A stretch of DNA of 64,000 bases from Candidatus Latescibacterota bacterium. GTDB taxonomy: Bacteria; Latescibacterota; UBA2968; UBA8231. Under the pieces are notes generated by a model. That model was not told where the DNA came from and did not search any database. It was given only the letters and a program-made list of their open reading frames with translations. The position numbers and the translations under genes were made by a program. Below, piece after piece: positions 5,791 to 60,310 of this stretch (positions within the stretch are counted from its first letter, which is position 1; each line of letters opens with the position of its first letter). Location: assembly GCA_965248265.1 (NCBI GenBank), contig CBDFJF010000002.1:2720001-2784000 (forward strand). Reading direction: 5' to 3'.

Positions 5791-6075
5791 AGTGAGGATA
5801 AACGGCATTACATCGGTAGTCAGTCAAGCGGTTTTTGGGCTTTTCGAGGGCGTTGAGGGTCGTGCTTGTGCGTTGATCGTGGTGCGGTGAACGATGGGGC
5901 AGTGGATAGGTGCCCGGATCAGCGCCTGCGGGCGCCGCGGCAGCTGTCAGCGAGAGATGGGAACGCAGCGGTGTCCGGCCGGTCGGTCTCAGGCGGCAAA
6001 GTCGAACTCGTGTTGGGGATGAGGCCGTGGTGGAGCGATGGGCGGCGCGCGCGACGGTAGACCGACGCCCTCCAG
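5791..6075 (-). mobile_element. IS91/ISCR family-A remnant: transposase C-terminus + oriIS, split by IS110
   Basis: LEGVGLPSRAPPIAPPRPHPQHEFDFAA* then ~200 bp ending GTTTATCCTCA-CT; homologous to 39491 and 48302. Confidence 0.8.
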
Positions 6076-6413
6076 AACGGCGGAATGCGGGGTTGGGGCT
6101 TTAGACGGGCATGCCGAAGGAGAGGGATCCAGGGCTGAGCGTGGTTTTCCCCCTTTTTCGCGACTCAGATGATCAGTTGGGGCGCAGCAGTCCAAGCGCG
6201 CTGCGGTTAGGCCGCGTATTCGAACTCAGCCTGCTGATCGTGCCTTGCCGGAGCAATTGGTGGAGGCCTTGCTGGCAGGCCCACCCCCTCGAGGTATGAG
6301 CGAATCGAGGCAGGCTCAGTCAAGGCAGCTACTATTTTCATCTGGCCGCCGCAGTCGGGGCATTCTGAAACGTCAATTGAAAACACGCGCGCCAGCAACT
6401 CGCACCAGGACAG
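6075..6413 (-). mobile_element. IS91/ISCR family-B remnant (transposase C-terminus 6207-6413 + part of 3' region)
   Basis: SWCELLARVFSIDVSECPDCGGQMKIVAALTEP..YLEGVGLP is the IS91-type C-terminal motif; 6075-6160 matches 49753-49839 and 60244-60306. Confidence 0.85.
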
Positions 6414-6525
6414 GGTCTTCGAGGAACAGCGAGTGTGGATGTTCAAGACAGATCTGATATTCTATCGGAAATGAGGCTTAGCGGCGCAGCTAAGCAAGGA
6501 TATGCAGTGCTATATGGGAAATCCC
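6413..6525 (+). repeat. ~110-bp promoter/leader element, copy 1
   Basis: Similar to reverse complement of 56956-57064 (near-identical over the 3' ~70 bp); TGnTATTCT and hairpin GCTTAGC-N6-GCTAAGC. Confidence 0.75.
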
Positions 6526-6561
6526 CGCTAAACAGACACTTACTGTAAGGAGATACTAGCT

Positions 6562-7893
6562 ATGACAAAATCACCCCAACACACCAATACTGGCTCATCC
6601 CGGAAGCGGTTGCGGAGCTATGGCGCAAGCTGTCTGATGCTCATCGGGATCATCTTCCTGAACGCATTGCCGACGCAGGCGGTTCCGCCCCCGCCGGTGG
6701 AGCGCGTGGAGATTCGCGGAAAAGCTCTCTATGTAAACGGGAAACCGTTTTTCCCGGTGAGCATAGGCTTTGTCGCGCACAATCATTATTCTCTGCCAGA
6801 GGCTGGTGAGAAGGGCTTCAATCTCGCCGAAACCCACGCAGGGACGCCACAGGCTTTCCGTATGGACATCGATGACGCCTATGCTAACGGTATGTACTCC
6901 GAGGCTTCACTCAGCAATGGTGTGTGGAAAGACCTGGAGATGGTCGAGCGGATAGTGAAGGCCTGCCGCGATGCCCCCGGACTGCTGGTGTGGGCGTTGG
7001 AGGATGAGCCCAACCATCCCAACAAACCTTCCTACAGGTATCCACCCGAGCAGTTCAAGCCGGTGGTCGACCTGATCAAGCGGCTCGATCCGCTGCACCC
7101 GGTATACCTCAACCTGGCCTGCGGACGTCTCAAGGACCATCAGGACTACCGGGATGTGGCGGACATCCACTCGGACGACATCTATCCGGTTCCCACCTCT
7201 CCCCTGGCGCATGTTGCCCAATACTCCGATAGTGTGGTGAAGGGCGCGGCGGGCGAGCCGGGCTGGCTGTGGATTCAGATGTCTCCCGTGCAGGGCCCCG
7301 GTTATATATGGGAAGGTGGCATCCCCGATCGAGCCCCGACCATGACAGAGGTCCGTTGCATGACCTATATGGCTGTGGCGCACGGCATCAGCGGCGTCCA
7401 GTACTTAGCTTTCCACTTCCAAAATAAGGGGGGCGACTGGTGGATCAACCAGTCAGAGCCGGCGTTCTGGGCGCAGTGGGCGGACCTGACGGCGGAATTG
7501 CGCCTTTTGACGCCTTACCTCTTGGCACCGGAGGCGCCCGGGCTCGTGTCGGAAATCATCGAAGGGTCCAAGGCCAGAGAACTTGGATATACAGCACTGC
7601 ACCTGTCACTGCGGCAAACTGACAGCGGCTACTTCCTGATCGCGGTCAACGGCTTCAATTCGCCGATCAAAGCTCGGTTCAAGGTTCCTGTTCCTGATGG
7701 CGGATTGGCACCAGATGGTGCTGCGGTGCGTTCTGAGCATCGACTGGTGGCCGTCAAGAATGGCGTGTTTGAAGACTCCTTTGAGCCTTATGCCGTACAT
7801 CTATACGAGATACCGTTCAAAGTGAAGTTTACAGGTCACCCCATCAAAGAGACGATCAGTTGGCCGCGGTGGCAACGGCGGCCCCGGCCGTGA
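6562..7893 (+). CDS. Secreted glycoside hydrolase-like protein (clan GH-A-like barrel)
   Basis: Signal-like N-terminus, LYVNGKPFFP, WALEDEP, DPLHPV, DIYPVP; AAGGAG RBS. Confidence 0.6.
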   Translation: MTKSPQHTNTGSSRKRLRSYGASCLMLIGIIFLNALPTQAVPPPPVERVEIRGKALYVNGKPFFPVSIGFVAHNHYSLPEAGEKGFNLAETHAGTPQAFRMDIDDAYANGMYSEASLSNGVWKDLEMVERIVKACRDAPGLLVWALEDEPNHPNKPSYRYPPEQFKPVVDLIKRLDPLHPVYLNLACGRLKDHQDYRDVADIHSDDIYPVPTSPLAHVAQYSDSVVKGAAGEPGWLWIQMSPVQGPGYIWEGGIPDRAPTMTEVRCMTYMAVAHGISGVQYLAFHFQNKGGDWWINQSEPAFWAQWADLTAELRLLTPYLLAPEAPGLVSEIIEGSKARELGYTALHLSLRQTDSGYFLIAVNGFNSPIKARFKVPVPDGGLAPDGAAVRSEHRLVAVKNGVFEDSFEPYAVHLYEIPFKVKFTGHPIKETISWPRWQRRPRP

Positions 7894-8420: not shown

Positions 8421-8429
8421 TCCATATAT

Positions 8430-8643
8430 GCATAGGGAGGATAAACGGTGTTATCGGGAGTCGGTCAAGTGGGTTTTTTTTTGGATTCGATGGTGGTGCT
8501 TGCTGTCGCCAGGGCGCTTGGGTGCCGGCCGTGGGTCGGGTGGGGTGCGATGGGACCGTCGATTCGGCCTTGGGACCGGCTTGATCCGCAATGCCATGGG
8601 TGGTGCCGATGAAAATCTGAGCTTTTGTGATGGACGGCGGTGC
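8430..8643 (-). mobile_element. IS91/ISCR oriIS remnant (family-A variant)
   Basis: GCATAGGGAGGATAAACGGTGTTATCGGGAGTCGGTCAAG parallels family-A ends; inner boundary approximate. Confidence 0.7.
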
Positions 8644-9068
8644 ACCATAGGCCGGCCGCAGTCGGTGAACGGGCTTTCCGTGAGCATGACGTGCGGTCTC
8701 ACCTCGAGGATGAGTTCCGCTATGCGATCGATAACCTCTGGATGCTCTGAGATGAGAAACGGCTTGTCCGGGAAGTTCAGCATGCGGATGTCAGTGACGT
8801 CGAAGATGGCGGCCGCGTTGCGCAGTTCATCCTCTTTCTGCTGGATGTATCTTTCGGCCGAAGCATTGACGACTGACGCATCTCGCTCCGACACCGGTTT
8901 GCGCAACTCCTCCATCCATTCCTCTCGATGGGTGCTGCCTCCGTGGGTCACCACGCATACCGTGGCTTCGTCCCCCCGTTCGACGTGTTTTCCGAGCGTC
9001 CCGGAAAACCAGGTGAAATCGTGGGGGTGGGCAGACACTGTCAGTATGCGCAGCTTGCGATCGGTCAT
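8644..9068 (-). pseudogene. PIG-L/LmbE family deacetylase, 3'-truncated at the oriIS remnant
   Basis: SAHPHDF, VCVVTHG, LNFPD, ILEVRPHVMLTES; reads into non-coding element sequence. Confidence 0.8.
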
Positions 9069-9313
9069 GCTCTCTCTCCTCTGTCGAGTCGGGTTTCTTC
9101 GTTCGCTCCGAATTTCCTCGGCTTGGGTCGATAGTTCTCGATTCCAGAACAATAATGCGGATTGCTTATCGAAGTAGTGGGTCGGTATTGACCTTCGTCT
9201 CGCCGCCGATCATTCTCACCATCGCCGCCATTGGCCGAAAATCGGGTCGTGTGGTTGGCAACCCGACCGGCAGTCGCAACAAAAAACCCCCAAATAAGCA
9301 CTGAGTGGCATCT

Positions 9314-10288
9314 ATGAACGTTCTCTATTTGGCCGACCGGAACAACGAAGACCAGTATTACCCTTTGGGCCCGTACCTTGAGAAGGCGTTACATCATCGT
9401 CATGATCTCCGGTTCTTTGATCCGTCACAGCCCGGTGTGGCCCAAATCAAAGGGATGGACGCGGTGATCGATGACGGCTTGATAGAGAACACTGAGCAGA
9501 TGGTCGAGGCCGCCGTGGATCTGAAACTCTGGCAGGTTGCCAAGACGGGTTTCGAGGATGCTCCGTTGGCGGCTCTGAAGGCCAAGGGTATTCCCACATG
9601 TAATTGTCCGGGTGTTACCAGCGGCATCTCGCTGGCAGAATGCGCCATGATGTTCATTCTGATGCTGACACGCCACTACAATGGCTGTCAGGACAACTTT
9701 TTCAATTCGAAGGCATGGTGGCAACCGATGGGCCGGGAACTGGCCGAACTCAAGCTGGGCATCGTCGGCTTCGGGGCCAGTGGCCAGGCATTGGCCCGCC
9801 GTGCCCGCTCTTTCGACATGGGAATTCGCGCCATCAATCGCAGCCCAATCAAACGAGAAATGCTCGAAAAAATACCTCTGGAACTCGCCGGCACTCCTGA
9901 CGATTTGGACCCGGTGATCAGCGAGTGTGATATCGTCTCGCTGCACCTTCCTCTCAACGACACGACTCGACAGATCATGAGTGCGAGACGGATCGGGCTG
10001 ATGAAGCAGGATGCGTATTTGATCAACGTGGCCCGCGGCGGGCTGGTTGATCAGGACGCATTGTTCGAGGCCTTGACGGATGGAAAGATTGCGGGAGCCG
10101 GCCTGGATGTATTTGCCGAGGAACCGCCTGATCCGAACCATCCGGCCTTTCGGTTGCCCAATCTGCTGATCACACCCCACATTGCGGGGAGCACGAACGG
10201 CACCTACCGCAAACGCGGCCTCTGTATGGCTGATAATCTCGACCGGATTGCCGACGGCCTGGAACCGCTCTACCGGGTCGACACCTGA
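9314..10288 (+). CDS. D-isomer-specific 2-hydroxyacid dehydrogenase
   Basis: GIVGFGASG, SLHLPL, LINVARG, GAGLDVF..EP, TPHIAG. Confidence 0.92.
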   Translation: MNVLYLADRNNEDQYYPLGPYLEKALHHRHDLRFFDPSQPGVAQIKGMDAVIDDGLIENTEQMVEAAVDLKLWQVAKTGFEDAPLAALKAKGIPTCNCPGVTSGISLAECAMMFILMLTRHYNGCQDNFFNSKAWWQPMGRELAELKLGIVGFGASGQALARRARSFDMGIRAINRSPIKREMLEKIPLELAGTPDDLDPVISECDIVSLHLPLNDTTRQIMSARRIGLMKQDAYLINVARGGLVDQDALFEALTDGKIAGAGLDVFAEEPPDPNHPAFRLPNLLITPHIAGSTNGTYRKRGLCMADNLDRIADGLEPLYRVDT

Positions 10289-10321
10289 ATCGTCTGGGTC
10301 CACGAATTGTAATACCGACAG

Positions 10322-13300
10322 CTAATACAGCACGCTCTGCGCATACCCCAGGAACAGGCGCACGAAGATCGACGTCGTGTCGAAGCTCTCGAGGAAGCGG
10401 AATTCGTCTTTGTACTCAAGCTTGTCCTGCTTGACCCCCAGATTGGCGGAGATTCGATACCCCGAGTAGTCCGACATATTGGAGAGGACGACCGTCATCG
10501 TCTGCCGCTCGAAGCTGTTGCGCGGCTCGGCCACATCGGTTTGCCGAAACCACCAGCCCGGAACCCCCTGAATCCCCACCTTCAGCTCCGTCGCCAGGGA
10601 GAGTTGATATCGGGCCGTGACGAGAGGGACGACCGTTTGGGTGTGGACCAAAGCCCGGCCCGCCTGCTGGCGGGTCCGCTTCAACCAGAGTCCTTTCAGG
10701 GCGGGCTGCAGCGTCAAATCCCCGAAACGCCACGTGTAGTCGGCTTGCTGCACCCACGCCAGGGAACGAACCCGATCCTCGGCTTGCTCCGAACCGTCTC
10801 CCAGCCGACCCCCATACTGACGGTTGTGTTCCAGTTTCACCCGAGTGATGATGCGCCAGCCGGGAAGCCACCTCAGGATGCCCGATACGTACATCCGGTT
10901 CACCAAGCTGTCGCGATAGCTCAACGGATCCGTAACAAACGTCGGCGCATAGGAGAATCGCCCCGACGCGAGCGTTAAATTTTGTCTGTTGACAGCCGTG
11001 GTGGCCGCTGTCCAGCTGTACACATCATCCCGCACATCGTCCCACACCCGCTTCAACTCATCCTCGATCAGCCATTCACCCACCCCAGGATGCTCCCCGC
11101 CATACCTCAGCCGGATGTAGCGCTGGTCGTTGCGGCCCCCGCCGGCGATCTGATGGGACTGCAGCCATCCCAGCGTTGCCCCCGCGCCCATCCATGGCTT
11201 CCAGCGGACATAAGCATGGCCCCCCCGCAGATCCTGGTCATAGGGAAGATCCGCCTCCTGGTCGTCCTCCCGCTCATCCACGACATCGTTGTTGTTGAAA
11301 TCCAGACCATACACGTATTCATCCGGATCCACCTCGTAGAGCAGAAAGGGCTCCAGATAGTCCGGCAGCTGATTCAGGTTGCGGTTCGTATCCGGGATGC
11401 CATCGTTGTCCGCATCCTGCCCGGGGAACACGGATAGATCACCGGGGGCCACGCCCGGTATCTTGCCCTCCGGATTGCTATCCTGATCGTCATTGTCGTC
11501 GAGAAGAGAGAAGAAGGTCGTCCTGTTCTCCACTGACCGCTGGCCTTGCATCTGGAGCACAAGATCTCCTGGCCTCGCCGTCAGTCGCTGGTTGAACATG
11601 GGCCCGATGGAAAACAGCTCTCCCCCAAAACCATAGCGCTCCGTCTCCCGCTCGAGCTGGACATACCCTGCCCGATCCCCACCGCGGTGACGTGCGCCAT
11701 TTGCCTCCCGAAGCTCCGGCTTGCCGGCAACCCAAACTACCTGCTCTCCAGGCACCCCATCCCGGTAGCGGCTGTACGTGAAGCTCTCCGCAAACTCCCC
11801 GCGCACCCGTAGACCCACAAGGTCCAGCGCCATATTCACACCCCATACCGACTGCCCGGTCTCGGTCCCGATCGGAATTCGTATCCGCTCCACATTGGAC
11901 AGATCCTGCACATTCCCCTCCGCACGACGCACGGTCTTATAGAACGGGGCACTATAACGAGTCTCATACGGGGTACCTTCCCTCGGATTCGACACACTCA
12001 GGTCAGCGACTTCGATGCGGTAATCATTGCCCACCGACGCCTCCACCTCCACCGAGCGCACGTGGGTCAGCCCCTCCAGATCGAAGTAATACACCAGGGC
12101 CTCGGTCCCATCCGCACGCTGAGCCTGGCTCGGATCCTCCCACCCCACAAACTCAACCAGACGATCTACGTCCGTGTTGTTGGCCACATTCGGATCGTCC
12201 GGGTCAAGTGCATAATCCCGCCGGTACAGGTAGTCGGCAAACAACGGCGTTTCCATCCCCCAATAGGGGCCCGGGGTGCGTGCAATGCCGGGTTGGTAGT
12301 AGAAGCTGGGCCCGAAACGCCCATCGACCGAGCTGGTCTTTCCAACCACCGTAAACCGATCCGTGAGATCCCGACGCACCACGTCCGGAACCAGATCCGG
12401 ACGCCTTTGACCATTGACCACCAACTGCACCCCGTACACTACGGGGCCACCTCGTCCATCGGCCGGCGAATCGTCCGAAATCCGTACCGCCAGCAGCGCC
12501 GGGATCGACTGAGTGGCATGCAGATCCCCCCTCAAGTCGGTCGTCGCATAGCGCACGTCGAACATGTGCTGGTTCGCAAACGTGGCGCCCACACGCAACG
12601 GCCCCGTCTCGCGCTCGTAGTGTCCTGCCAGCAGAATACCCGAATCGTTGTCGGTACCGGCTGCGGTCCCCCCTGCCCGATATACCGAATAACTGTAGGC
12701 CGCTACGAGGCTCAAGGCATCTCCAAACGGGCTCAGCACATCCGCCCGGGCTCCCTGCAGCGACACTCGATTCAACGTCAGCGGCGTGAACCGAGTGATG
12801 ATCCCGCGCGTCCACCAAAACTGTTGAGTCATGTGCCCTGTGAAGATGAGATTACTTGCCCATCCCGAGTGGGTCTGTCCTCCCATGGACAAAACCCCGT
12901 GGAAATTACTGAGGTTAGATCTGAGAATACTGCCTCCACGCCGTCTTGCCCCCTCCCTGGACTGTTCCGCGGTCCAGGTGCCCAATTCCCGACCGCTGAT
13001 CAGGAAGTTACCCAGGGGATCGTAGATATTCGACCACGGCGGACGATCCGTCAGCGCCTCGTAGTTTTGATACTCCGTGAACGCGTAGTTTCGATACGAC
13101 TCCCCCGGGTCCCCCAAAAACATCTGATCCGGCACGATCGCAGGCACCATCGGGGTTTCCTTCCACCGACGCTCCGCCTCCCATCTCCCCTCGCCCACCA
13201 CAGTCGTCACGAGAAGAAGATGGAATGCAAATGACAGACGTCTCCCTCGGAAGCCCAAGCGGCACCCTACCCCTTCCAGCCTTTTGCCTTTACGCACGAT

Positions 13301-13357
13301 GCAGGGCCTCGCTTCTGTCTTGTCGTTGGTTTCGCAGTTCGTATATGAAGGGCTCAC
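10322..13357 (-). CDS. Large hypothetical protein, probable outer-membrane/secreted, with Asp-rich Ca-binding repeats (true start probably downstream of 13357)
   Basis: ~1000-codon ORF, DDNDDQD / DADNDGIPD / DFNNNDVVD motifs, beta-strand-like C-terminus. Confidence 0.6.
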   Translation of the reverse strand: MSPSYTNCETNDKTEARPCIVRKGKRLEGVGCRLGFRGRRLSFAFHLLLVTTVVGEGRWEAERRWKETPMVPAIVPDQMFLGDPGESYRNYAFTEYQNYEALTDRPPWSNIYDPLGNFLISGRELGTWTAEQSREGARRRGGSILRSNLSNFHGVLSMGGQTHSGWASNLIFTGHMTQQFWWTRGIITRFTPLTLNRVSLQGARADVLSPFGDALSLVAAYSYSVYRAGGTAAGTDNDSGILLAGHYERETGPLRVGATFANQHMFDVRYATTDLRGDLHATQSIPALLAVRISDDSPADGRGGPVVYGVQLVVNGQRRPDLVPDVVRRDLTDRFTVVGKTSSVDGRFGPSFYYQPGIARTPGPYWGMETPLFADYLYRRDYALDPDDPNVANNTDVDRLVEFVGWEDPSQAQRADGTEALVYYFDLEGLTHVRSVEVEASVGNDYRIEVADLSVSNPREGTPYETRYSAPFYKTVRRAEGNVQDLSNVERIRIPIGTETGQSVWGVNMALDLVGLRVRGEFAESFTYSRYRDGVPGEQVVWVAGKPELREANGARHRGGDRAGYVQLERETERYGFGGELFSIGPMFNQRLTARPGDLVLQMQGQRSVENRTTFFSLLDDNDDQDSNPEGKIPGVAPGDLSVFPGQDADNDGIPDTNRNLNQLPDYLEPFLLYEVDPDEYVYGLDFNNNDVVDEREDDQEADLPYDQDLRGGHAYVRWKPWMGAGATLGWLQSHQIAGGGRNDQRYIRLRYGGEHPGVGEWLIEDELKRVWDDVRDDVYSWTAATTAVNRQNLTLASGRFSYAPTFVTDPLSYRDSLVNRMYVSGILRWLPGWRIITRVKLEHNRQYGGRLGDGSEQAEDRVRSLAWVQQADYTWRFGDLTLQPALKGLWLKRTRQQAGRALVHTQTVVPLVTARYQLSLATELKVGIQGVPGWWFRQTDVAEPRNSFERQTMTVVLSNMSDYSGYRISANLGVKQDKLEYKDEFRFLESFDTTSIFVRLFLGYAQSVLY

Positions 13358-13375
13358 GACTCCCGGAAACAGGTA

Positions 13376-15307
13376 CTAGTAGGCCATTCTCAATCCATTA
13401 CCCATCATCCCGGTGAAATAGTCCACGATCAGCCAGAATCCCCCGGCCACGAACTGACCCAGGATCAACCCGTAGAAAAGAGGAGCGAGCGAGCGATAGG
13501 CTTTGAGGCCACCATACTTCAAGAGAACCGACTTGGTCAGCCAGGCCAGAAACACCGGAAACCAGGCCGTACCCATCACCCTGTCCATACTGACCACAAA
13601 TCCCAGAGGGTGTAACGGCCACCACAGGAAGCGGCGATGCAAGATCAGCAGACCTGCCATCATCCCGCCACCCAGCAGCCGGGTGAACCAACCCAGCCAG
13701 TTCGGTCCCACATTCTCGTCGACCCTGTGCGCCACATAGTCCCAAGTGAACTGGGGTAGATAGCTTACGTAACCAGCTACATTGATACCCCCCTCCCGAT
13801 AGGTTACCCACAACGTCATCCAGAACGTACTGACCGCAGAAACCCCGATAGCGATCGCAATCGCCAGCAACAACCATCGCTTCCGATGCGCGATCTCCCC
13901 ACTCAACTTCAACCCCGTGGCCGTATGCGCCATCATCGTGCTCGCCAGTGATTCCGTCCATATCACCGTCGGCCCCAGCGCCGCTATCCCTGAAGGCCCT
14001 ATGTACTTTGCCCCAATCCCCGAGATGACGACGTCCAGGGGGACATTTCGGGGAAACACCATGGGCAGTCCCGCCTCAGCGATGATGCGCGTCAGGCTGA
14101 TAAAGGTCACCAGCGCCCCAAACAGAAACAGCGGCGTTACCCACATGGGCAATCCCGCCCGCCACAGCCACACGCTCATTGTGACCAGTCCGAGGATCAC
14201 CCCCCATACCGCGGTTCGGTAGGACACGATTTCGTCGGCATCGTCCACCGAAGCGTCCCCTCTGAACGCCTTCCGAAACACCTCCTGCAGATGCCCCCGG
14301 GCAATCCAGAGCCCGAAGAGCACCAGCGCCGTCATGGCACCTAGACTCTGATGTGCGAACAGTCCACCGCCATAACCAGACACAGGTTCCCCCATGCCAG
14401 CCCTCACCATGACCAGCGCACCCTCAACCAGTTGCCGCAACAGAGTGAACACCCACATCCCGAGCATGACGTCCGGTTTGAGGAAGTACGCAAACCCCAG
14501 GATCATCAGATTCAGGTAGAAAGAAATGCCGACAAAACCTCGCAACAGGTTTATGTCTCCGAAACTTGCCGGAACCACGGGCACAAAGGGGAAGTAGTGG
14601 TTCAGGGCATTGAGGCTCACCCGACCAAACGCCAGCAGCAATCCCACCCACATCAGGCTGCTCTTGAAAAAGGGCGCCACCAACCCGCCACCAGACGGGG
14701 CCTCCACCATGGCCAGGGGCACTTTGGTGATCGGATAGATCAGGTGCTCGTGCTCCACCCACTGGCGGCGGAGGATCACCATCGCGCAGATGCTCACCGT
14801 CCACAGCGCCACCATGAACAGCGTCCACCAGAACAGCGGCGGCAACCACATGTCCCAGGGAATCGACTCACCCTCCGGCATCCCCTCGAAGAACCACCGG
14901 ATGCCCAGCTCATCCTGTGGCACCATCCACCTGGCCACGTAGGGATGAACCCGCTCCGACCACGCGTTTTCCGGCGTCGCCAGGTAGGACATCCCGGCCG
15001 TGGACGACAACAGCATCAAGCAGAAGCCGTTGCGCTCGCCCCCCGAGAACGAAGTCGCCACGACCATCATGATGTAAATGGTCAGCAACTCCCCCCGGCC
15101 AAGGACCAGCCGTCGGTGAATGACCCCCAGCAGGACCTGTACGACACCCACCCACAGGAAGAACAGGAAGAAGGCGGCGGGCGCATTCAGCGAGCTCATG
15201 TGGCTGCCCATGATGACGAACGCGCCGTAGGGCACCCCCACACCGATCACCAGACTGAGTCCGGCTCCGATGACCAACGAGCGCGGCGTCACGCCCGACG
15301 CCGACAT
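13376..15307 (-). CDS. Polytopic membrane protein, DUF6785/DUF6784 (OPT-like transporter)
   Basis: ELLTIYIM, ILRRQWVEHEHLIYPI, RIIAEAG, WWPLHPLG, LKYGG; many TM segments. Confidence 0.75.
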   Translation of the reverse strand: MSASGVTPRSLVIGAGLSLVIGVGVPYGAFVIMGSHMSSLNAPAAFFLFFLWVGVVQVLLGVIHRRLVLGRGELLTIYIMMVVATSFSGGERNGFCLMLLSSTAGMSYLATPENAWSERVHPYVARWMVPQDELGIRWFFEGMPEGESIPWDMWLPPLFWWTLFMVALWTVSICAMVILRRQWVEHEHLIYPITKVPLAMVEAPSGGGLVAPFFKSSLMWVGLLLAFGRVSLNALNHYFPFVPVVPASFGDINLLRGFVGISFYLNLMILGFAYFLKPDVMLGMWVFTLLRQLVEGALVMVRAGMGEPVSGYGGGLFAHQSLGAMTALVLFGLWIARGHLQEVFRKAFRGDASVDDADEIVSYRTAVWGVILGLVTMSVWLWRAGLPMWVTPLFLFGALVTFISLTRIIAEAGLPMVFPRNVPLDVVISGIGAKYIGPSGIAALGPTVIWTESLASTMMAHTATGLKLSGEIAHRKRWLLLAIAIAIGVSAVSTFWMTLWVTYREGGINVAGYVSYLPQFTWDYVAHRVDENVGPNWLGWFTRLLGGGMMAGLLILHRRFLWWPLHPLGFVVSMDRVMGTAWFPVFLAWLTKSVLLKYGGLKAYRSLAPLFYGLILGQFVAGGFWLIVDYFTGMMGNGLRMAY

Positions 15308-15411
15308 CTTCGTTCTCCTTGGGTGGTCCTGAGCCGTCGGCGCGCTCCCAGTCCGATGCGGTACCGACGGCGGTGATTGGCAAGATCGACGACTGGTCGT
15401 GGGGCACCTAG

Positions 15412-15528
15412 GGCGTGCCGGGCCTGATGTGTGAGGCCGGCCTGGAGGGCGTCAGCCGCCGTAAGCGGGCGCAAACGACGTGACGCATCGGGACGGGGCG
15501 GGTGGCTTTGAACCTGGTGGATGTGCGG
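15412..15528 (+). pseudogene. Degenerate IS3-family transposase fragment
   Basis: LMCEAGLEGVSRRKRAQTT*...ALNLVD resembles the IS3 OrfB RLMR..GL....RRK...TT....DLV segment. Confidence 0.55.
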
Positions 15529-15594
15529 CCGGTCCCTCTCGTTGCAGTACTGTGCTCGGGAGATCCCCTGAGCAGCGCATTTTGGAGATAGCCT

Positions 15595-15636
15595 GAAAAC
15601 AGAGATGGAGGAGGGACATAACCCCTCCTCCACCTC
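15595..15636 (-). terminator. Intrinsic terminator after the FlgD-tail gene
   Basis: TGGAGGAGGG / CCCTCCTCCA stem followed on minus strand by TCTCTGTTTT. Confidence 0.65.
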
Positions 15637-15660
15637 GATGATCCGGTCGGGTGACCCTCC

Positions 15661-17595
15661 TTATTTGAGCAGGGTCATCTTCTTGGTCAACTCATGGTCC
15701 CCGACCCGCAGGCGATAGAAGTACATCCCGCCGGCAACGATCTCTCCGCCGACGCTATTGCCATCCCAGCTGGTACGATAGGAGCCCGCTCGCAGGAACT
15801 CGTTGACCAGCGTGCTCACCTGCTGACCCTGGCTGTTGAGTACCGTCAACAGCGCTTGGCCCCCAACCGGAATAGAGAACTCGATCGTCGTCTGGGGATT
15901 GAACGGGTTCGGATAGGCATCACCCAGCTCGTATTCGTCGGGTGTTGCGTCGGAAGTCGTTTCCACGATTGCCGTCGGCAAGTTGGTACCGATCAGTGCC
16001 GTGGAAATCCGGAACGGCAGATGGGCAATCTGATAGCCATGACCATCACCGTGGAACTCCTGTTCAGTAGCCAGAAGATAGAGTCCGTCGTGCTCCGAAT
16101 GCTCGTGGACCATATAAACGCCCGTCCCGGTCGCGTTGTTATGCGACGTCGGAGCCCTGGCTGCGTCAACGTGAAGGAGTCCCGAGCCATCGGGGCCGTA
16201 GAGCGCCCCCCAGTGGGGCTGGACCTCGTTCTGCGTACCCTCAGCCAAGAAAGCGAACCCCTCGGCACTGCCGCTGATCACGTGAGCGTCACCATCCAGC
16301 GTTGACTCAATGCCCAGGGCCTGGGCTTGGGCGTCAAAGATCATGTCGTTGAAGCCGTCCCCGGCATCGTTTATGTAGATGGCGTTCCCGTCCCAGTCGA
16401 CCTTCATCGGGCTTCTTGTTGACGAATCCCCGCCCCAGCCTCCAGCGCAGACGATGAACCCCGAGTCATCGATGACCATAGTCCCAACCATACTGGCAAC
16501 GGGCGAAGTTGACCCATCCTCATTGTAGCGATCCCATACATAGTGTTCGCTGATGTCGATGATGTCCGTGACGTCGCCCGTATTGGAATCCAGTTCGTAG
16601 ATATCGCTGACCGGGGGATTGGTAAAGAACCCATGGCCCAGGTACAGGTTGTCTTCATAGAATTGAAGCGAATTGAAAATGTTCGAGTTTTCGTCGACAA
16701 CAATCCTCTCCTTCCAGCTGGCGGGCGGGTCCCCGAAGCCTTCCATGGGTTCGGCCGTGAGCTGGTCCAGAGATACGGTAGCGCCAAGTATGCCACCATC
16801 CCAGAACTGGTACGACCACCAGCGGGTGAAGTCGTCCGGATCGACGACAGAGCCATGGCTCGTGCCCCCCAGTATCGCTCTCGGGTTCCCGTCAGCGTCC
16901 GTCAGGCCGTAGTCCGGGTATTCGGTGAGCTGGACGAGCTCCATCTCGTCGTTTTCCAGGAAATTGCCCGGTGCGATCGGATATCTCACGAAGGCCCCTT
17001 GACCCGCGATATCCACTCTCGGGCCACCCGGCCTCGTGCCCAAGGGCCCGCCGGTGCCGATGACCCATCCTTCCCCTTGGGCGTTCTGAAGGTAGACAGC
17101 GCGCTGCCGCATTCCCCAACCCGAGACGCCTACCCAGTTGGCATCATCCTGGTCGTTGACGCCGATACAGTAAAGGGTGTACGTGCCCGAGTCGACGGCG
17201 TTCCCTTCCCAATCTCTCCCATCCCACGTGCCACTGTGCGTTCCCTCCTCAAATGACCCCAGCTCGATCACTCGTACCAGGTTGGGGATCCCCGCTTTGC
17301 GGAACACGGCGTGGCCTTCATTTATCTGGGGGATACCAGGGCCACCCCAGCCACCTTCAGTGGGCTGATCCTTGGTGTACACCGCCAGCCAGACGGAGGC
17401 CCGGCTGCCCCGCAGAGTGAAGGGAACGTCCACATTGCCGCTGAAATCGTAGTTCACATTCCCCAGGTCGATCTCCAGCACCTGCAGCGGCTCGCTACGC
17501 ACGTATCGGTAGTCCGGGGTCCCCGCCTGGCCGTAAGCTTGTCCCGCGCAGACCGCGAGGAGGATCATGGACAGAAAGACAGTTCTCGGTTGCAT
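15661..17595 (-). CDS. Secreted protein with FlgD Ig-like domains / T9SS-like C-terminal tail
   Basis: Signal peptide, WDGRDWEGNAVDSGTY, YPNPFNPQTTIEF...WDG...GMYFYRL...KKMTLLK. Confidence 0.8.
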   Translation of the reverse strand: MQPRTVFLSMILLAVCAGQAYGQAGTPDYRYVRSEPLQVLEIDLGNVNYDFSGNVDVPFTLRGSRASVWLAVYTKDQPTEGGWGGPGIPQINEGHAVFRKAGIPNLVRVIELGSFEEGTHSGTWDGRDWEGNAVDSGTYTLYCIGVNDQDDANWVGVSGWGMRQRAVYLQNAQGEGWVIGTGGPLGTRPGGPRVDIAGQGAFVRYPIAPGNFLENDEMELVQLTEYPDYGLTDADGNPRAILGGTSHGSVVDPDDFTRWWSYQFWDGGILGATVSLDQLTAEPMEGFGDPPASWKERIVVDENSNIFNSLQFYEDNLYLGHGFFTNPPVSDIYELDSNTGDVTDIIDISEHYVWDRYNEDGSTSPVASMVGTMVIDDSGFIVCAGGWGGDSSTRSPMKVDWDGNAIYINDAGDGFNDMIFDAQAQALGIESTLDGDAHVISGSAEGFAFLAEGTQNEVQPHWGALYGPDGSGLLHVDAARAPTSHNNATGTGVYMVHEHSEHDGLYLLATEQEFHGDGHGYQIAHLPFRISTALIGTNLPTAIVETTSDATPDEYELGDAYPNPFNPQTTIEFSIPVGGQALLTVLNSQGQQVSTLVNEFLRAGSYRTSWDGNSVGGEIVAGGMYFYRLRVGDHELTKKMTLLK

Positions 17596-17733
17596 TTCTC
17601 AAACTCCTCAGGTACGATTGATGGTGAACGTTCGTCGAGCAGTGAGTTGGGCAAAAAACACTTCCTCCCTCCCCCTTCACCCGCACCAGCACGTTCAGAT
17701 TACACTTCTCCTCTCTGGCTGGCGTCACATCAC

Positions 17734-44527: not shown

Positions 44528-44579
44528 ACGGAGACCAGATATTTGCCCACGACTGGTGTTGACATGTTACCGCTTGTCT
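44528..44579 (+). mobile_element. IS110 right end with -35 box and CT core
   Basis: GGTGTTGACATGTTACCGCTTGT-CT identical to the reverse complement of 4257-4281. Confidence 0.9.
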
Positions 44580-47399: not shown

Positions 47400-48301
47400 C
47401 GGCACACTGGTAGATGTCGGGTTGTTCGCGGAAGCTCTCATCTACTATGACCAGCTTCTTGTAAACCCCACGACACAGCCGCAATTTGCGGCTCTCCTTG
47501 AATGGGCGCAGAACCAGTCTTCGCTCGACAAGCTGCTTGGTTTGGCCAAGGACGGTGTAATCAAGATTTACGACTACTCATTTGCCACCTCCGCAGTGCA
47601 ACAAGGTGCCAGCTATGCGATCATGAATATTCAGGATGAAGTCCAGGCTCAACCCAATACGTTTGACCGTCGATTCTTGTATCATGACTCGGTTGAGGCG
47701 CTCTTCCCAAAGGCACGGCACCGCAGAAAAATCTATGAGGCGTTTCATGGAATTCGATAGAGGCTAAGGCCAATGATTTTGGTGAAGCCGTGGAAAACGC
47801 GGGCCGTGACTACTATGACGAACGTCGGTGTGCCCTGATCGTCCAGGCTCTGGTCGATGTGGTGTATCGCGACAAGCAACTGGGGGCACCACCTCTCGTC
47901 GAGGCAACTTTGTCGCGCACCGAAGGCAGCACCCAACACAGCATAACTTGGAACGTGAATTTCAAATGGCTATCCGAGAAACTCGGGGCCAATCTGAATT
48001 TTCACTCTTCTACGCCCCTGACTGCTGGAGCGGTGGCCAATCGCCTTATTTGGTCCGCTGCGCAATTGGACTGTGACCTCTACTTACCATCTCCGATGAG
48101 TAGCCTTGTCGGCGACAAGCTCTACGAAACGTCATTAAGGGCTGACAAGACTGACACGGTTATTCAATCCCTCCAGGAGGCAGTTGAGTTTCCTGATATT
48201 CGGACGCTCGTGAATACCGGACAACTCTCCCTTGATGAAGTTCTGGAGATTAGAACGAAGTCTAAGAGGTTCCGTGCCTGGTTACAGCAGGAGTCGGAGG
48301 C
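47400..48301 (+). pseudogene. Lower-GC hypothetical gene; no clear start, frameshift near 47751, interrupted by oriIS at 48302
   Basis: Two consecutive ORFs joinable by one base (FHG-NSIEAKAND). Confidence 0.6.
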
Positions 48302-48542
48302 GCATAGTGAGGATAAACAGCATTATCGGTAGTCAGTCAAGGTGTTTTGGGCTTTTTCGATTGCGTTGAGGGCCGTGCTTTTGCGTTGATCGTGGTGCGG
48401 TGAACGATGGGGCAGCGGATAGGGTGCCCGGATCAGCGCTTGCGGGCGCAGCGGCAGCTGTCAGCGAGAGATGGGGACGCAGCGCTGTCTGGGGTGGGGC
48501 TCAGGCGGCAAAGTCGAACTCGTGTTGGGGATCGGGCCGTGC
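48302..48542 (-). mobile_element. IS91 family-A oriIS mini-element
   Basis: Near-identical to 39491-39735 with the same two endpoints. Confidence 0.85.
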
Positions 48543-48633
48543 TTGATGAGAAGGCTATACATGTGATCTTGTATGTGGACGAACGAACCGCGGAAAACTG
48601 GAAAATTCCGGACTAACACTCAGGAGATCCCCC

Positions 48634-49551
48634 TTGCAGGCCCAAAACACAGACCTTCCGCCCGGCGGTAATAGCAGTGCCCCCACGGCCGCTTCCGTCG
48701 GAGTGACGCCGACCCGCGATCCGGCCGTGGCCGGCGAGCAGATGCGCCGGCACGGTTTCTGCATCATAGAAGGCGTCCTTCCGCCCTCTGCCATACCGGC
48801 CCTGAGGGAGAGCGCCGAACGCACCGCGATGGCGCACGACGACTGGCACCTCGACGGTTCCAAGGCGACATGGCACGTGGGGAGCGTGCTCACCTACGAC
48901 CAGACGATGGCCGCCTGGATCGGCGAGAGCCGCGTGCTCGACGTCGTCGAAGAGGCCTTCGCCACGGCCGAGATCCAGATCAGCTATACCACGCTGCAGG
49001 TCAACAAGCCGCACTGCCAGCAGCAGATCTGGCACGCGGATGGACACCTGGCGCAAACGGAACAGTACCCGCCGCCGCACGAGGCGCTGCGCCGTCCCGC
49101 GCACATCAACGCGCTCTACATGCTGAGCGACTTCACGGTTGCCAACGGCGGGACCTGGATGGTGCCCGGCTCGCACGCGCGGCCGGCTTCTGAAGATCCG
49201 TGCCGAGCGTGGTCGACCGAAGCCCAGTACTCGCCTTACCCGGAGGCCGTCCACGCGACCGCGGCCGCCGGCTGCGTGTGCGTGCTCGACTGCCGATTGT
49301 GGCACTGCATGCCGCCGAACCTGACGGACGCGGCGCGGGTCATGGTCAACGTGCGCTATGCACCGAGCCGGGTGCCCATCGAGCTACTGGTGAATCGGGG
49401 TGCCGGCCAGCCCCCGTGGCCGCCCATGCCGCAGGCAGTGTACGAGGCGCTTCCCTCCAGGTTGAAGCCGCTGTACGCGCACGCCCCGCTTCCTCCTCCG
49501 CCACCTTATACGCACGAGTTGGGCCTGTTCCTGAACGACAAACGGGTCTAG
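48634..49551 (+). CDS. PhyH family dioxygenase (start uncertain)
   Basis: RHGFCIIEGVL, WHADG, LSDFTVANGGTWMVPGSH, RLWH. Confidence 0.85.
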   Translation: MQAQNTDLPPGGNSSAPTAASVGVTPTRDPAVAGEQMRRHGFCIIEGVLPPSAIPALRESAERTAMAHDDWHLDGSKATWHVGSVLTYDQTMAAWIGESRVLDVVEEAFATAEIQISYTTLQVNKPHCQQQIWHADGHLAQTEQYPPPHEALRRPAHINALYMLSDFTVANGGTWMVPGSHARPASEDPCRAWSTEAQYSPYPEAVHATAAAGCVCVLDCRLWHCMPPNLTDAARVMVNVRYAPSRVPIELLVNRGAGQPPWPPMPQAVYEALPSRLKPLYAHAPLPPPPPYTHELGLFLNDKRV

Positions 49552-49629
49552 CGCGGCGTCCTGGAAGCAGGATCGTTAACGATCAAAGCCAGAGCCTTAG
49601 TCTGGAACACTTCATGGGAGATCCGAATG

Positions 49630-49679
49630 ACCCTCGCAGGGCCAGACCTACCCGAAGTGGTCCGCACCTATTATACGAG
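49630..49679 (-). mobile_element. Left-end remnant of a sibling IS110 element
   Basis: CT-CGTATAAT-AGGTGCGGACCACTTCGG..GTCTG.CCC.GCGAG parallels 5748-5792. Confidence 0.8.
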
Positions 49680-55528: not shown

Positions 55529-55844
55529 GCTTAGTGGTTATAAGGTAGGTTATCGTTAGTCGATCCGGTGTTGTTTTTTCGCTTTTTTCGTGTTGATGGC
55601 GGTCGCTTTGGGTTGACGGTCTTCGAGTGAGCACTTGAGGCTGCGAATAGGGCCGGAGGGGAGTGGCTGTGAACGAAGATGGGATTCACAGCGATGGATC
55701 GGGACACAGCGGTGCCGTTGCTGCGACGGCGAATCGATCTCAGGCGGCGAAATCCAGCTCAGCTTGGGGATTGGGGCGTGCCGGGGCGATCGGCGGTGCC
55801 CGTGATGGCAGGCCGACGCCCTCCAGATAACGAACAATAGAACG
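55529..55844 (-). mobile_element. IS91 family-C oriIS remnant, copy 1
   Basis: SIVRYLEGVGLPSRAPPIAPARPNPQAELDFAA* + 3' region ending TTATAACCACTAAGC; direct repeat of 57394-57710. Confidence 0.85.
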
Positions 55845-55970
55845 CTTGGCAAGTTATGAGGATACTAATGATGCTGAACGGCTATGTGTTGATCCGCCAT
55901 GCGTCAGGGTGTCGGAGAACGAGCAAAGGATAAAACGGTAGGTTTTGTGGGCGTGATTTCGCCTTCAATA

Positions 55971-57393: not shown

Positions 57394-57849
57394 GCTTAGT
57401 GGTTATAAAGTAGGTTATCGTTAGTCGATCCGGTGTTGTTTTTTCGCTTTTTTCGTGGTTGATGGCGGTCGCTTTGGGTTGACGGTCTTCGAGTGAGCAC
57501 TTGAGGCTGCGAATAGGGCCGGAGGGGAGTGGTTGTGAACGAAGATGGGATTCCCAGCGATGGATCGGGACACAGCGGTGCCGTTGCTGCGACGGCGAAT
57601 CGCTCTCAGGTGGCGAAATCCAGCTCAGCTTGGGGATTGGGGCGTGCCGGGGCGATCGGCGGTGCCCGTGATGACAGGCCGACGCCCTCCAGATAACGAA
57701 CAATAGAACGGGGCTCGGTAAGGGCCGCGACGACGGAGACCGGTCTGATGACCGGTCTCTTGGAGTTTGCCTACGGCAAACTCCCCTTCATTGCGGCCGC
57801 CGCAGGCCAGGCATACGGTAACGTCCACGCGAAACATGCAGCAACCGGG
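57394..57849 (-). mobile_element. IS91 family-C remnant, copy 2 (longer transposase stub)
   Basis: FRVDVTVCLACGGR..MK[insert]VVAALTEPRSIVRYLEG...; ori end followed by GTTC. Confidence 0.85.
57735..57785. repeat. 51-bp double-hairpin insertion
   Basis: GAGACCGGTC-TGAT-GACCGGTCTC and GGAGTTTGCC-TAC-GGCAAACTCC between the MK and VV codons. Confidence 0.85.
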
Positions 57850-59163
57850 TGCAGCAACCGGGCTGATAGGTAACAGTCTAAACCGGGTTGATGGGTGACA
57901 CTATTGTTTTGATTGAATTCACTCCCGTACGATCATGTCCCTCTCGTCGACGGTGGCTAGGAGGACGGTGTTGAAGTAGATGGCCCAGACGCCGTCGTCG
58001 ATCTCCTCGAGACCGATGTCGAGATGCTTGAGAGACTGAGCGATGAAGATGAGCTTGTGGCCGAGGCGTATGGTCCCGGCTCGGGTGACGTGCTTGATGA
58101 CGAAGTGACCGGGGTACTCAATGGTCGGCATGCGGCCGGGATAGGGCCGGGGTGATGGGTGGTACCGGGAGCCAGGAGTCTTGCCGTTGAGGGCGTCATG
58201 GGGACGCTCGTCGTTGTAGAGCTGTCGGAAGCGCTGGAAGGATCGCTGCTGGGCGGCCTTGTTGGCGGCGGGTGGCCGACAGGTAGCGGCCTTCAAGGTG
58301 CGATGCATGCGTTCGTGGGCGCCATTTTCCTGCGGCGATGCCGGGCGGATCCGCTGGTGCACGATGCCGAGCCTCATCCACCAAACGTTGAGTCGGCATA
58401 GCCCATGCAATCCTCTGGAAGCAAAGGGAACGCCGTTGTCGGTGCGAATGGCCTGAGGCAGGCCGAATTCGCGGAAGGCTCTCTCGAAGACCGGACGCGC
58501 ATGCAAGGTCTTGATGTCGGGCAGGGCGCGGCAGGTCAGGAGATAGCGAGTGTGCTGATCGCTGATGGTGAGAGGGAAACACCAAACTCCGTTCTTGGTA
58601 GGAAATTGGCCTTTGAAGTCGGCCGTCCACAGATCGTTGGGGTTGTCGGTGGTCGGCGGCACGGCTCCGGGGTGCTGACGTGGGCGTCGTCGTCGTCGCT
58701 TCTTCACCAGGCCTTCGCGCACCAGCAGATCGCCTGCCGTACTGACCGCCGGCCAGGAGCAGATGTGCGGATGTCGAGGCGCCAGCCAGTCCAACAGTTT
58801 GTTCGGTCCCCAATCGGGGTGCCGTGTGCGCGCTCCGAGAATGAGCTCGGCAATCTCTGGCGCCATGCGATGCGGACAGGTGTGGGGCGCGTGACTGCGG
58901 TCCTGTAACCCGGGCACCCCCTCTTCGGCGTGCCGCTGAAGCCACTTGTATCCGGTTTTGCGGCTGATCCCGTATCGCTCGCACAGCTCCGCTCTCGAGT
59001 AGTGCCCGCGCTGATCGTCGGCGATAAATCGCTTACGTTGTTCCATGGGTGCTGTCTCCATCCAGGGCATCGACCAACCTCCCAATTGGGGTTGGTCAAA
59101 AAGTAGAAGGAGTGTCACCCATCAACCCGGTCAGATGTGTTACCAATCTACCCGGTTTGTACC
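57850..59163 (-). mobile_element. IS481-family element (outer limits approximate)
   Basis: Perfect 21-bp inverted repeat 57882-57902 / 59111-59131 within longer imperfect IRs. Confidence 0.85.
57919..59070 (-). CDS. IS481-family DDE transposase
   Basis: MPW.E, YGISRKTGYKW, WTADFKG, IRTDNGVPF, PQENGAHERMHRTLK, YNDERPH. Confidence 0.95.
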   Translation of the reverse strand: MPWMETAPMEQRKRFIADDQRGHYSRAELCERYGISRKTGYKWLQRHAEEGVPGLQDRSHAPHTCPHRMAPEIAELILGARTRHPDWGPNKLLDWLAPRHPHICSWPAVSTAGDLLVREGLVKKRRRRRPRQHPGAVPPTTDNPNDLWTADFKGQFPTKNGVWCFPLTISDQHTRYLLTCRALPDIKTLHARPVFERAFREFGLPQAIRTDNGVPFASRGLHGLCRLNVWWMRLGIVHQRIRPASPQENGAHERMHRTLKAATCRPPAANKAAQQRSFQRFRQLYNDERPHDALNGKTPGSRYHPSPRPYPGRMPTIEYPGHFVIKHVTRAGTIRLGHKLIFIAQSLKHLDIGLEEIDDGVWAIYFNTVLLATVDERDMIVRE

Positions 59164-59312
59164 ACACGCGTGCTAACAAGGCGGCCCAGGCCCGGCGATG
59201 ACGGCGGGCGGGTGCTGATTCAGCAGCTTCGCCGGGGACTGTCTCTGGGTCCTGGGACACTTCTTCCAGCCACGAGCCTGTGCAGGGTCAGCAGGGGCTC
59301 CCAGCCGTGGAC

Positions 59313-60062
59313 CTACCTGGCCATCATCAGCTCGCGCGTCGTCACGCCGTCGTCGGTCAGGCGCACGAGCAGGAAGCCGGTGGGCACGTCGTCGAAGTTC
59401 CAGGCCGCCGAGCGCAGGACCCAGGCTGGTGAGGTGCCGATCGTGAAGCATCGTGTCGGCAGGTGCTGGTGACCGAAGAACAGGGCCGCGGGACGGGTGC
59501 GCGTGACCAGGTCGATGAAATAACGGGCGTCGTGTGGTCCCATCGACATGTCGTCCTCGATCGCCTCGGGATGCGGCGGGATGTGGGCGAAGACCACCTT
59601 GTGCGGCTCGGGCCGTGCCAGCTCGGTCTCGAGCCAGGCGCACTGTCCCCGAGGCTGAATGTCCTGACTGACCAGGTGGCCCACGTGATCGCCGCCGGCC
59701 CCGCCATCGCAGACGACGATGAACCGTACCCCGGCGTGCACGAAGGAGTAGTAGTCGGAGGGCTCGCCGTCGACACGGAAGTCGTGGGGGAAGATGGAGT
59801 GCAGCTGCTCCTTGCGCTCGCGTCCGTGCTCGTGGTTGCCGGCCACGGCGTGCACCGGCACGCCGGCGGCGGCCAGTTCCGCCGGGTCGAGCGCCCAGAG
59901 GTGGATGTCCCCGAGCAGGAAGAGGAACTCCGGCTGCTCGGCCGCTGGCAGCTCGCGGATCAGCTCCAGGCAGCGACCGAGGCGCTCGGCGCCGAGGATG
60001 CCGGTCTCGGGACGCTGCTGCGAGCAGTGCAGGTCGGCGATGACGGCGAAGGGAAAATCCAT
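59313..60062 (-). CDS. Calcineurin-like metallophosphoesterase
   Basis: ADLH, LGD, AGNHE, HIPP, GHQH. Confidence 0.88.
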   Translation of the reverse strand: MDFPFAVIADLHCSQQRPETGILGAERLGRCLELIRELPAAEQPEFLFLLGDIHLWALDPAELAAAGVPVHAVAGNHEHGRERKEQLHSIFPHDFRVDGEPSDYYSFVHAGVRFIVVCDGGAGGDHVGHLVSQDIQPRGQCAWLETELARPEPHKVVFAHIPPHPEAIEDDMSMGPHDARYFIDLVTRTRPAALFFGHQHLPTRCFTIGTSPAWVLRSAAWNFDDVPTGFLLVRLTDDGVTTRELMMAR

Positions 60063-60163
60063 GGCGGTCTCCGGCGTCAGCTCAGGTCGGCAAGGACGCG
60101 CGCGAAGAGGTGCGGTTGGATCTCAGGGCGCCGGTCTCTTCGTGCAGCTTCCTGGCCGCGGGA

Positions 60164-60310
60164 GTATAGGACAAATAAGTGGCGTTATGGTGAGTTTAGA
60201 TCCGTGGGGGCCGTGGTGTCGAGCGAATCATGAATCTTTTTTTGAACGGCGGAAGGGGGGGTGGCCATCGACGGGCATTGCGAAGGAGAGGAATCCAGAG
60301 CTGAGCCTGT
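60164..60310 (-). mobile_element. IS91 family-B oriIS remnant with intact end
   Basis: Minus strand ends CACTTATTTGTCCTATAC, like the CCTATAC terminus of ISCR/IS1294 oriIS. Confidence 0.8.

Follow-up and report, generated by a model that had tools for sequence, protein, structure and literature searches.

Co-oriented, truncated IS91-family ori ends in a plastic accessory region of a Candidatus Latescibacterota chromosome

The window, by which we mean the whole 64,000-nt stretch analysed here (C2:2720001-2784000), belongs to the 7.32 Mb, two-contig genome of a Candidatus Latescibacterota bacterium (G000; 59.6% G+C) and is punctuated by truncated copies of IS91-family insertion sequences (ISs). 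It lies within a plastic accessory region of ~115 kb (C2:2.687-2.802 Mb) in the 7.3-Mb chromosome and carries, in total, ten ori-end termini and one ori-less stub of elements whose transposases combine the Zn_Tnp_IS91 and Y2_Tnp domains; tRNA genes, looked for as island markers, do not occur within the window. The relatives used for comparison are family-level genomes (here coded G002, G004, G008, G011, G015 and G018), searched in sets of 31 and 21 genomes, none of the same genus. A Pfam scan covered 48 proteins, and public sequencing runs (X1, X19, X23 and X24) were examined as assembled contigs only. Seawater-metagenome runs contain 6-25% of the sampled words of this DNA, which weakly hints at a marine host. 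Coordinates without a contig prefix are window positions.

Ori-end remnants of IS91-family elements

The remnants fall along the window as follows.

4254-6075, minus strand: family A ori-end remnant, with ori nt 1-4 at 4254-4257 and the other 285 nt at 5791-6075; transposase tail ..QHEFDFAA-stop
6075-6413, minus strand: family C ori-less stub, without the first 75 nt of the ori end; tail ..AEFEYAA-stop
8430-8637, minus strand: family B ori-end unit, 208 nt, non-coding part only; one junction of a 17.7-kb inversion
21918-21970, minus strand: B-like ori terminus, 53 nt only, upstream of a GHL10-like gene
39491-39735, minus strand: family A ori-end remnant, tail ..QHEFDFAA-stop, broken at element position 240
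43233-43259, minus strand: family A ori terminus (GACTAGTG..), interrupted after 27 nt by the IS110-type element 'E'
48302-48542, minus strand: family A ori-end remnant, 240 nt, matching the ori end of full-length L004 at 99.6% identity
49678-49850, minus strand: family C ori-end remnant, ~170 nt, without its first 4 nt
55529-55850, minus strand: family D ori-end remnant, ~318 nt, tail ..AELDFAA-stop
57394-57834, minus strand: family D ori-end remnant, ~441 nt, matching 55529 with 98% identity across 319 nt; an IS481-type IS adjoins its inner end
60164-60330, minus strand: family C ori-end remnant, ~165 nt

The transposase sense is the minus strand in 11 of 11 copies and none is full length, a search of the window having found no full transposase. 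An earlier note on this DNA, made from its letters alone, had described just this uniformity, and all ten termini that it listed are present at, or no more than 4 nt from, the positions it gave. Three of these positions are refined here: i) the copy placed at 5791 really starts at 4254-4257 (GCAT) and is split by an IS110 element at 4258-5790, ii) the copy at 49674/49678 has lost its first 4 nt, which are replaced by a ~50-nt fragment of the same IS110 element ('Z'), and iii) the copy placed at 43237 begins at 43233, and a second IS110-type element cuts it off after 27 nt. Where at least three sequence families had been proposed, at least four (A-D) can be told apart, with ~70-80% mutual identity. 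On the plus strand the termini begin GC[A/T]TAG.. or GTATAGG..; in the longer copies, the reverse complement of the last transposase codons follows ~200 nt beyond the terminus. The family C stub is joined directly to the inner end of the first A remnant, and at 39491 a further ~12 nt past a ~19-nt deletion may also be element-derived.

A whole-genome search for Y2_Tnp (PF04986) returned 16 matches, four of them near full length and one of these, L002, apparently intact.

L001, C2:1.157 Mb: near full length, with a shifted C-terminal tail
L002, C2:1.843 Mb: uninterrupted 483-aa frame; Zn_Tnp_IS91 3.6e-19 and Y2_Tnp 2.7e-28
L003, C2:2.688 Mb: near full length, frameshifted
L004, C2:2.801 Mb: shifted C-terminal tail; Zn_Tnp_IS91 2.3e-19 and Y2_Tnp 6.5e-26

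L003 and L004 flank the window on either side, just outside it. Since L002 and L004 carry both domains and the window remnants align to the ori-proximal (3') ends of the near-full-length copies (the 5791 remnant being 99% identical to L003, q32-296), the elements are IS91-family members and the window copies are their ori ends. In all families a conserved terminus lies ~200-240 nt downstream of the transposase stop codon, and the ori end holds the conserved blocks CGATAA, TTAT and CTAWRC-3'; the oriIS consensus of IS91 and ISCR elements ends in a ..CCTATAC-like motif. The upstream end of family A, as set by the point at which L003 and L004 diverge, is unlike the ori terminus, so that the element has two distinct ends and no terminal inverted repeats. 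Retained lengths range from 27 to 540 nt genome-wide (53, 69, 165, 208, 212, 240, 285, 318, 370, 441, 476 and 540 nt among them), and the same inner ends recur pairwise: that of the 208-nt B unit, that of a 212-nt L1-family copy in two different contexts, and A position 240 in the 39491 and 48302 remnants.

Clustering and orientation

Genome-wide, 53 ori termini were catalogued, 37 in the plus and 16 in the minus orientation, and 22 of them fall in C2:2.689-2.800 Mb. Neighbours no more than 10 kb apart have the same orientation in 26 of 31 pairs (label permutation p ~0.0008), so that orientation and location are non-random, against the random placement that the earlier note had named as the outcome adverse to its proposal. 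The window copies belong to a co-oriented run of 14, and runs occur in both directions across the genome. A second array, at C2:1.134-1.156 Mb, comprises seven co-oriented L1-family termini that are 99-100% identical to L001 over their retained part.

Arrays of this kind are also found in relatives. Matches to Y2_Tnp occur in 14 of the 21 family genomes, G000 included. An nhmmer profile of the G000 ori termini found only one match in 200 kb of the arrays of G018, a genome of a different genus, and tblastn with the L002 transposase was used instead. One G018 array has 28 of 28 high-scoring segment pairs (22 loci) on the plus strand across 140 kb, and the other has 13 of 13 (8 loci) on the minus strand across 60 kb; the transposase C-terminus is kept at 18 of the 22 and 6 of the 8 loci, respectively, and the 5' truncation points vary. 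Their cargo is of the same kinds as in the window: GH32-like, GHL10-like, PhyH and DUF6785 genes, and proteins tailed for the type IX secretion system (T9SS). G015 has co-oriented runs of 6 and 3. Co-orientation is a local and recurrent property of the clusters.

The uniform polarity had alternatively been attributed to a replication-strand bias of insertion. The GC skew of G000 changes sign near C1:2.9-3.0 Mb and C2:3.45 Mb, with dnaA at C1:2.96 Mb; in the window the plus strand is leading, and the transposase remnants are hence head-on to replication. In G018 (dnaA at 2.18 Mb; skew positive at 2.5-4.6 Mb and negative at 0.2-1.2 and 5.0-5.7 Mb, from 20 samples of 20 kb), both arrays are instead co-directional with replication, while G015 has arrays of both kinds, as judged by dnaA position alone. 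With polarity opposite in two genomes and mixed in a third, a simple strand rule fails, and a universal replication-strand bias was rejected on these few arrays.

Inversion, transduced flanks and interrupted ori ends

The window segment 8428-9758 is 100% identical to C2:2709432-2710763, where it is inverted and circularly permuted; in window orientation, the second copy reads X-[8637..9758][8428..8637]-Y. Of this repeat, the 208-nt B unit (8430-8637) corresponds at 100% identity, in opposite orientation, to C2:2709432-2709641, and the remainder is a duplicated segment.

8637-9758, no strand assigned: 1122-bp segment with the 5' part of a PIG-L gene and the 5' part of a 2-hydroxyacid dehydrogenase gene; inverted copy at C2:2709642-2710763

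In the latter copy, the 9758 end adjoins the other B ori terminus. Only the second locus has a full PIG-L gene (317 aa), and only the window has a full dehydrogenase gene; one native PIG-L/dehydrogenase locus was thus split by a 17.7-kb inversion, the break points of which lay 1122 bp apart, with the interval between them duplicated. The gene order of G015 matches the un-inverted state: the counterpart of window 3-3674 is inverted, at 95% identity, beside that of C2:2717108-2720298, followed by that of 10314-17613 at 85-88%. In contigs of X1, X23 and X24 the alignment begins at precisely 8637 and gives way to unlike sequence, a 4927-nt X24 contig spans PIG-L to the dehydrogenase (8637-10295) in three adjoining pieces, and a contig of X19, probably the run of the source organism, begins exactly at 8637, as expected for a repeat boundary.

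The B unit stands at both junctions of this inversion. Simple recombination between inverted B copies cannot create the 1122-bp duplication, which points to a replicative, transposase-mediated event with staggered target joints. Because B-208 is identical at both junctions of a recent inversion, an ori end that lacks a transposase of its own (hereafter, a tag) appears to have been active. Of the earlier proposal that the tags are non-autonomous and driven in trans, the activity of transposase-less tags is therefore supported, and we infer the action in trans. The same inversion accounts for the sole proven gene truncation beside a remnant. The remnants had been thought to abut several truncated genes, which is confirmed for PIG-L only (the window has a 233-aa read-through, the second locus 317 aa); the other flanking genes seem for the most part to be intact, and for the open reading frames (ORFs) at 47422-48332 and near 49850 neither a family nor a paralogue was found.

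The dehydrogenase gene itself (9305-10288) is 88-90% identical at the DNA level to genes of G018, G008 and G002, which represent two other genera, with no close match beside the adjoining G015-syntenic block. In G018 the homologue sits in an IS91-rich stretch at 5.38-5.50 Mb.

Adjacent DNA has been mobilised too, as the earlier note had expected of such elements. The full-length copy L004 is followed by an enolase fragment equivalent to window 38902-38984 plus 39289-39490 (92-95% identity), then by GCATAGTG, the first 8 nt of the 39491 ori, and then by unrelated DNA; the source enolase gene lies just outside the 39491 ori in the window. Judged by its sequence, the joint looks like read-through that halted at the next co-oriented ori. 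A 162-bp segment beyond the transposase-upstream region of L001 likewise recurs, at 96% identity, directly against the L1 ori terminus at C2:1134272; a tandem head-to-tail reading of this junction (C2:1134108-1134272) failed, with 162 bp shared and nothing further to the left. Partial ori stubs of 16 and ~9-11 nt directly precede the full ori ends at C2:1156212 and C2:2796042. A 363-nt piece of a glycoside-hydrolase-like pseudogene at 3527-3889, 96% identical to an intact gene that adjoins the ter end of L003 (C2:2687155-2687517), was also considered as an IS91-linked segment; no such link is evident, and the piece is the 3' fragment of a paralogous gene.

Several ori ends are interrupted, or adjoined, by ISs of other families.

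4258-5790, minus strand: IS110-family IS 'Z'; transposase 4309-5499 (DEDD_Tnp_IS110 3.6e-39, Transposase_20 2.6e-16)
43260-44578, plus strand: IS110-type element, an E/Z chimera with an 'E' 5' half and a 'Z'-like 3' half; transposase 43383-44618 (DEDD_Tnp_IS110 2.3e-11)
49630-49677, minus strand: left-end fragment of Z, ~50 nt, still joined to the C ori (49678) at the usual position
57837-59163, minus strand: IS481-type IS (rve integrase core), adjoining the inner end of the D remnant 57394

The window copy of Z is inserted between GCAT(A) and AGTGAGG of an A ori end. All three full Z copies (window 4258-5790, C2:2703919-2705451 and C2:2786744-2788278) occupy the same ori-end position (G-N-W-T-A / A-G..), in A-, D- and C-type (C-like) families, and homologous junctions of IS110 and ori are present in G011 and G015. 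Element E is 94% like Z in its 3' half and different in its 5' half. It inserts ~27 nt into the ori end, after ..ACAT, at four of four left ends examined (window 43260, C2:2691121, C2:582268 and C2:1904979); the right end of the window chimera adjoins the 5 nt (TATAC) with which an oppositely oriented C-type ori begins, and the 39491 ori keeps an 8-nt E footprint (CTAAAGAG). From these junction sequences, two IS110 elements appear to home into IS91 ori ends. The genome holds 8 further copies of the IS481-type IS, including a partial one (863 nt), and their 99.8-100% identity marks the element as recently active.

The genes between the tags are on both strands, with one to ~fourteen genes in an inter-tag interval. 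Seven window ORFs match Pfam PhyH (one of them under the cut-off), and two GHL10-like and two enolase-superfamily genes are present; all three groups are rich in paralogues, both in the rest of the genome and among relatives. The gene at 39763-42984 encodes an FG-GAP/esterase protein of 1073 aa with a T9SS sorting tail, and holds six 144-147-bp tandem coding repeats (41.2-42.1 kb). The start codon of RtcB (21903) is 15 nt from the ori terminus at 21918, and its promoter may lie in or beyond the 53-nt remnant, recalling the outward promoters of ISCR1 oriIS (PMC6218425). An X19 contig bridges the 21918 remnant; a 733-nt X1 contig from 21916, with 98 unaligned nt as a candidate for another left neighbour of this tag, was too short and too divergent to count. 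Contig joints within 12-24 kb (88% likeness, short sides) were taken to come from other organisms or paralogues and were left unused.

Origin of the tags and relation to known systems

Taken together, the remnants are best explained, with a probability of about 0.6, as products of one-ended or prematurely ended rolling-circle transposition and of linked rearrangements, some of the tags having been mobilised after truncation and having shuffled their neighbours. Several IS91 sub-families would have been active in the ~115-kb region, leaving 5'-truncated copies by one-ended or premature termination, as experiments showed for IS801, and the pattern would since have been overlaid by rearrangements and by other ISs inserting into the copies. 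Some tags would then have moved after truncation, presumably by means of a transposase supplied in trans, and would have acted as breakpoints that invert, duplicate and transduce neighbouring DNA. The uniform polarity would follow from strand-preserving, short-range re-insertion and/or from read-through from one ori to the next co-oriented ori.

Six points weigh against this explanation. i) The inner ends of 18 remnants have no tetranucleotide in common, in which they differ from the IS801 miniatures, and many remnants may accordingly be products of deletion or rearrangement. ii) A CTTG/GTTC-type target was not seen beside the ori in ~29 flanks, which are varied; one flank (57394) is GAAC on the plus strand, that is, GTTC on the transposase strand, L1-family copies always have GC directly before the ori terminus, and this clade may have another specificity. 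iii) RNAalifold, run with RNA parameters on the short first 60 nt of 20 ori ends, found no consensus helix on either strand to represent an ori hairpin. iv) Ori stubs of 8-16 nt misfit a nick at the element boundary. v) Only L002 looks intact; with three of the four long transposase genes frameshifted or altered in their tails, current activity would have to come from L002. vi) None of the remnants could be matched to an empty site in the 31 and 21 genomes that were searched.

The strongest competitor, which we regard as doubtful, would make ori-to-ori units the currency of exchange. A transposase acting in trans would start at one ori and end on reaching the next co-oriented ori, or a few bases into it, and the single-stranded unit would re-insert next to a further tag; accessory genes of the glycan and PhyH kinds would thus be traded singly between genera and stacked as an integrase-free analogue of an integron, and homing into the tags would be a trait that the IS110 elements had evolved. 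Consistent with such units, the DNA transduced by L004 runs 8 nt into the next ori, the partial stubs at C2:1156212 and C2:2796042 stand right upstream of full ori ends, and in three families the ter-side DNA of one copy equals the DNA just outside the ori of another; co-oriented G018 arrays carry similar cargo families, and co-oriented ISVsa3/ISCR2 copies form circular gene units (PMC9557058). The stub lengths nevertheless vary (8, ~10 and 16 nt) and define no single cleavage site. The best matches of successive window genes from 17.6 kb on (82-91% identity) each lie in a different genus and show no colinearity across several genes. Such a single-gene mosaic is compatible with gene-by-gene flux without tying that flux to the tags. 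What most resembles a cassette is the PhyH gene at 48572-49574, which lies between the A-240 and C ori ends and the right boundary of which (49574) is common to G004 (91%) and G018 (95%, last 93 nt only); G018 has an IS91 transposase tail ~170 nt past this boundary, but in G004 no tag precedes the gene.

Other comparisons speak against ori-to-ori units more directly. No unit of tag and cargo starting at the ori was seen in more than one setting, except for that of family B: the segment 8428-9758 occurs twice, permuted and inverted, and an inversion with staggered joints explains it better than the capture of a cassette. None of the other tags shares its cargo with another place in the genome, and relatives carry cargo genes without tags. 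Multi-gene colinearity, seen with G015 only among the relatives searched, extends over the blocks 3-3674 and 10314-17613, the ends of which (3674 and 10314/17613) are away from ori termini, although ori tags do fall inside the non-syntenic gap between the blocks. The expectation that synteny would break at ori ends is therefore not borne out. The earlier note's integron-like array, assembled cassette by cassette, fares no better, given genes on both strands that are mostly intact at the junctions, G015 blocks that ignore the ori ends and inner ends without a consensus.

Less likely still is a passive graveyard, in which dead full-length insertions would have been trimmed by unrelated deletions and ISs, with polarity reflecting an insertion-strand preference or selection and the inversion reflecting host recombination: the lack of an inner-end consensus, the interruption or adjoining of several remnants by IS110 and IS481, the defects of most transposase genes and the 37 of 53 termini in one direction would suit it, but homologous recombination of inverted B copies alone cannot yield a 1122-bp duplication with one intact gene per locus, L1 tags 99-100% identical to L001 have six different truncation points within 22 kb, which suggests that they were made in the course of transposition, G000 and G018 differ in their polarity with respect to replication, the one being the opposite of the other, and co-orientation is local, with runs in both directions.

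Premature or one-ended rolling-circle transposition, the explanation that we favour, has its closest precedent in IS801. Right-end fragments of 229, 360 and 679 nt made up 26% of IS801 transposition events, full copies recruited 290-1431 nt of adjacent DNA, and the transposase acts in trans; most natural IS801 fragments in Pseudomonas syringae were ascribed by the authors to deletion or reorganisation (PMC3189936). The window thus resembles IS801 in its ori-end fragments of a few hundred nt and in the adjacent DNA found on full copies. It differs in lacking the tetranucleotide that IS801 miniatures have at the inner end, in having co-oriented copies packed densely into arrays (a row of 14 here, 22 loci in G018), in a presumably marine host, and in cargo that looks like carbohydrate-active and PhyH genes, not virulence genes. 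IS91 itself uses CTTG/GTTC target and terIS tetranucleotides, forms a single-stranded circular intermediate and undergoes one-ended transposition (PMC13181058); the elements described here are similar in their Zn-binding and HUH/Y2 transposase, as far as domain matches tell, and in their distinct ori and ter ends, and differ in the absence of the canonical tetranucleotide beside oriIS. The joint of cargo and ori that a circular intermediate would show is already part of the chromosome.

ISCR1 and ISCR2/ISVsa3 are IS91-related elements without terIS, or otherwise truncated, with variable genes on the oriIS side (PMC6218425, PMC9557058). Same-orientation copies with unrelated genes between them and truncation on the ter side (11 of 11 copies in the window) are common to both systems, and circular units of gene and element are a feature of ISCR (PMC9557058). 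In the accounts cited, however, ISCR arrays consist of two or three copies, mostly with an intact transposase, on plasmids and in resistance islands, whereas those described here are chromosomal and consist mostly of solo ori ends from at least four diverged families; no resistance gene was found among the proteins scanned against Pfam. Helitrons share rolling-circle HUH chemistry, gene-fragment capture by read-through and truncated copies (PMC4778049), yet the full-length transposases here carry Zn_Tnp_IS91 and Y2_Tnp only, with no Rep/helicase fusion; Helitrons are an analogy and not a matter of membership. With integrons the arrays have in common a row of co-oriented tags, resembling recombination sites, between unrelated genes, and are set apart by genes on both strands and by several inter-tag intervals that hold many genes. 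Neither an integrase nor attC-type sites were found among the 48 Pfam-scanned proteins, the sole rve match being the IS481 transposase.

In a limited literature search, the only earlier accounts of co-oriented, truncated IS91 arrays were small ISCR2/ISVsa3 cases; dense co-oriented arrays across genera and the homing of IS110 elements into ori ends exceed the descriptions found there. IS91 and ISCR elements have been studied mostly as plasmid movers of resistance and virulence genes, and large accessory regions of the chromosomes studied here, from presumably marine bacteria, appear to be shaped by the same chemistry, with dozens of co-oriented, ori-only tags in several genera. If exchange of ori-to-ori units were true, it would provide a general, integrase-free route for gene-by-gene exchange; on a conservative reading, the arrays offer a natural system for asking why copies of rolling-circle ISs cluster in one orientation.

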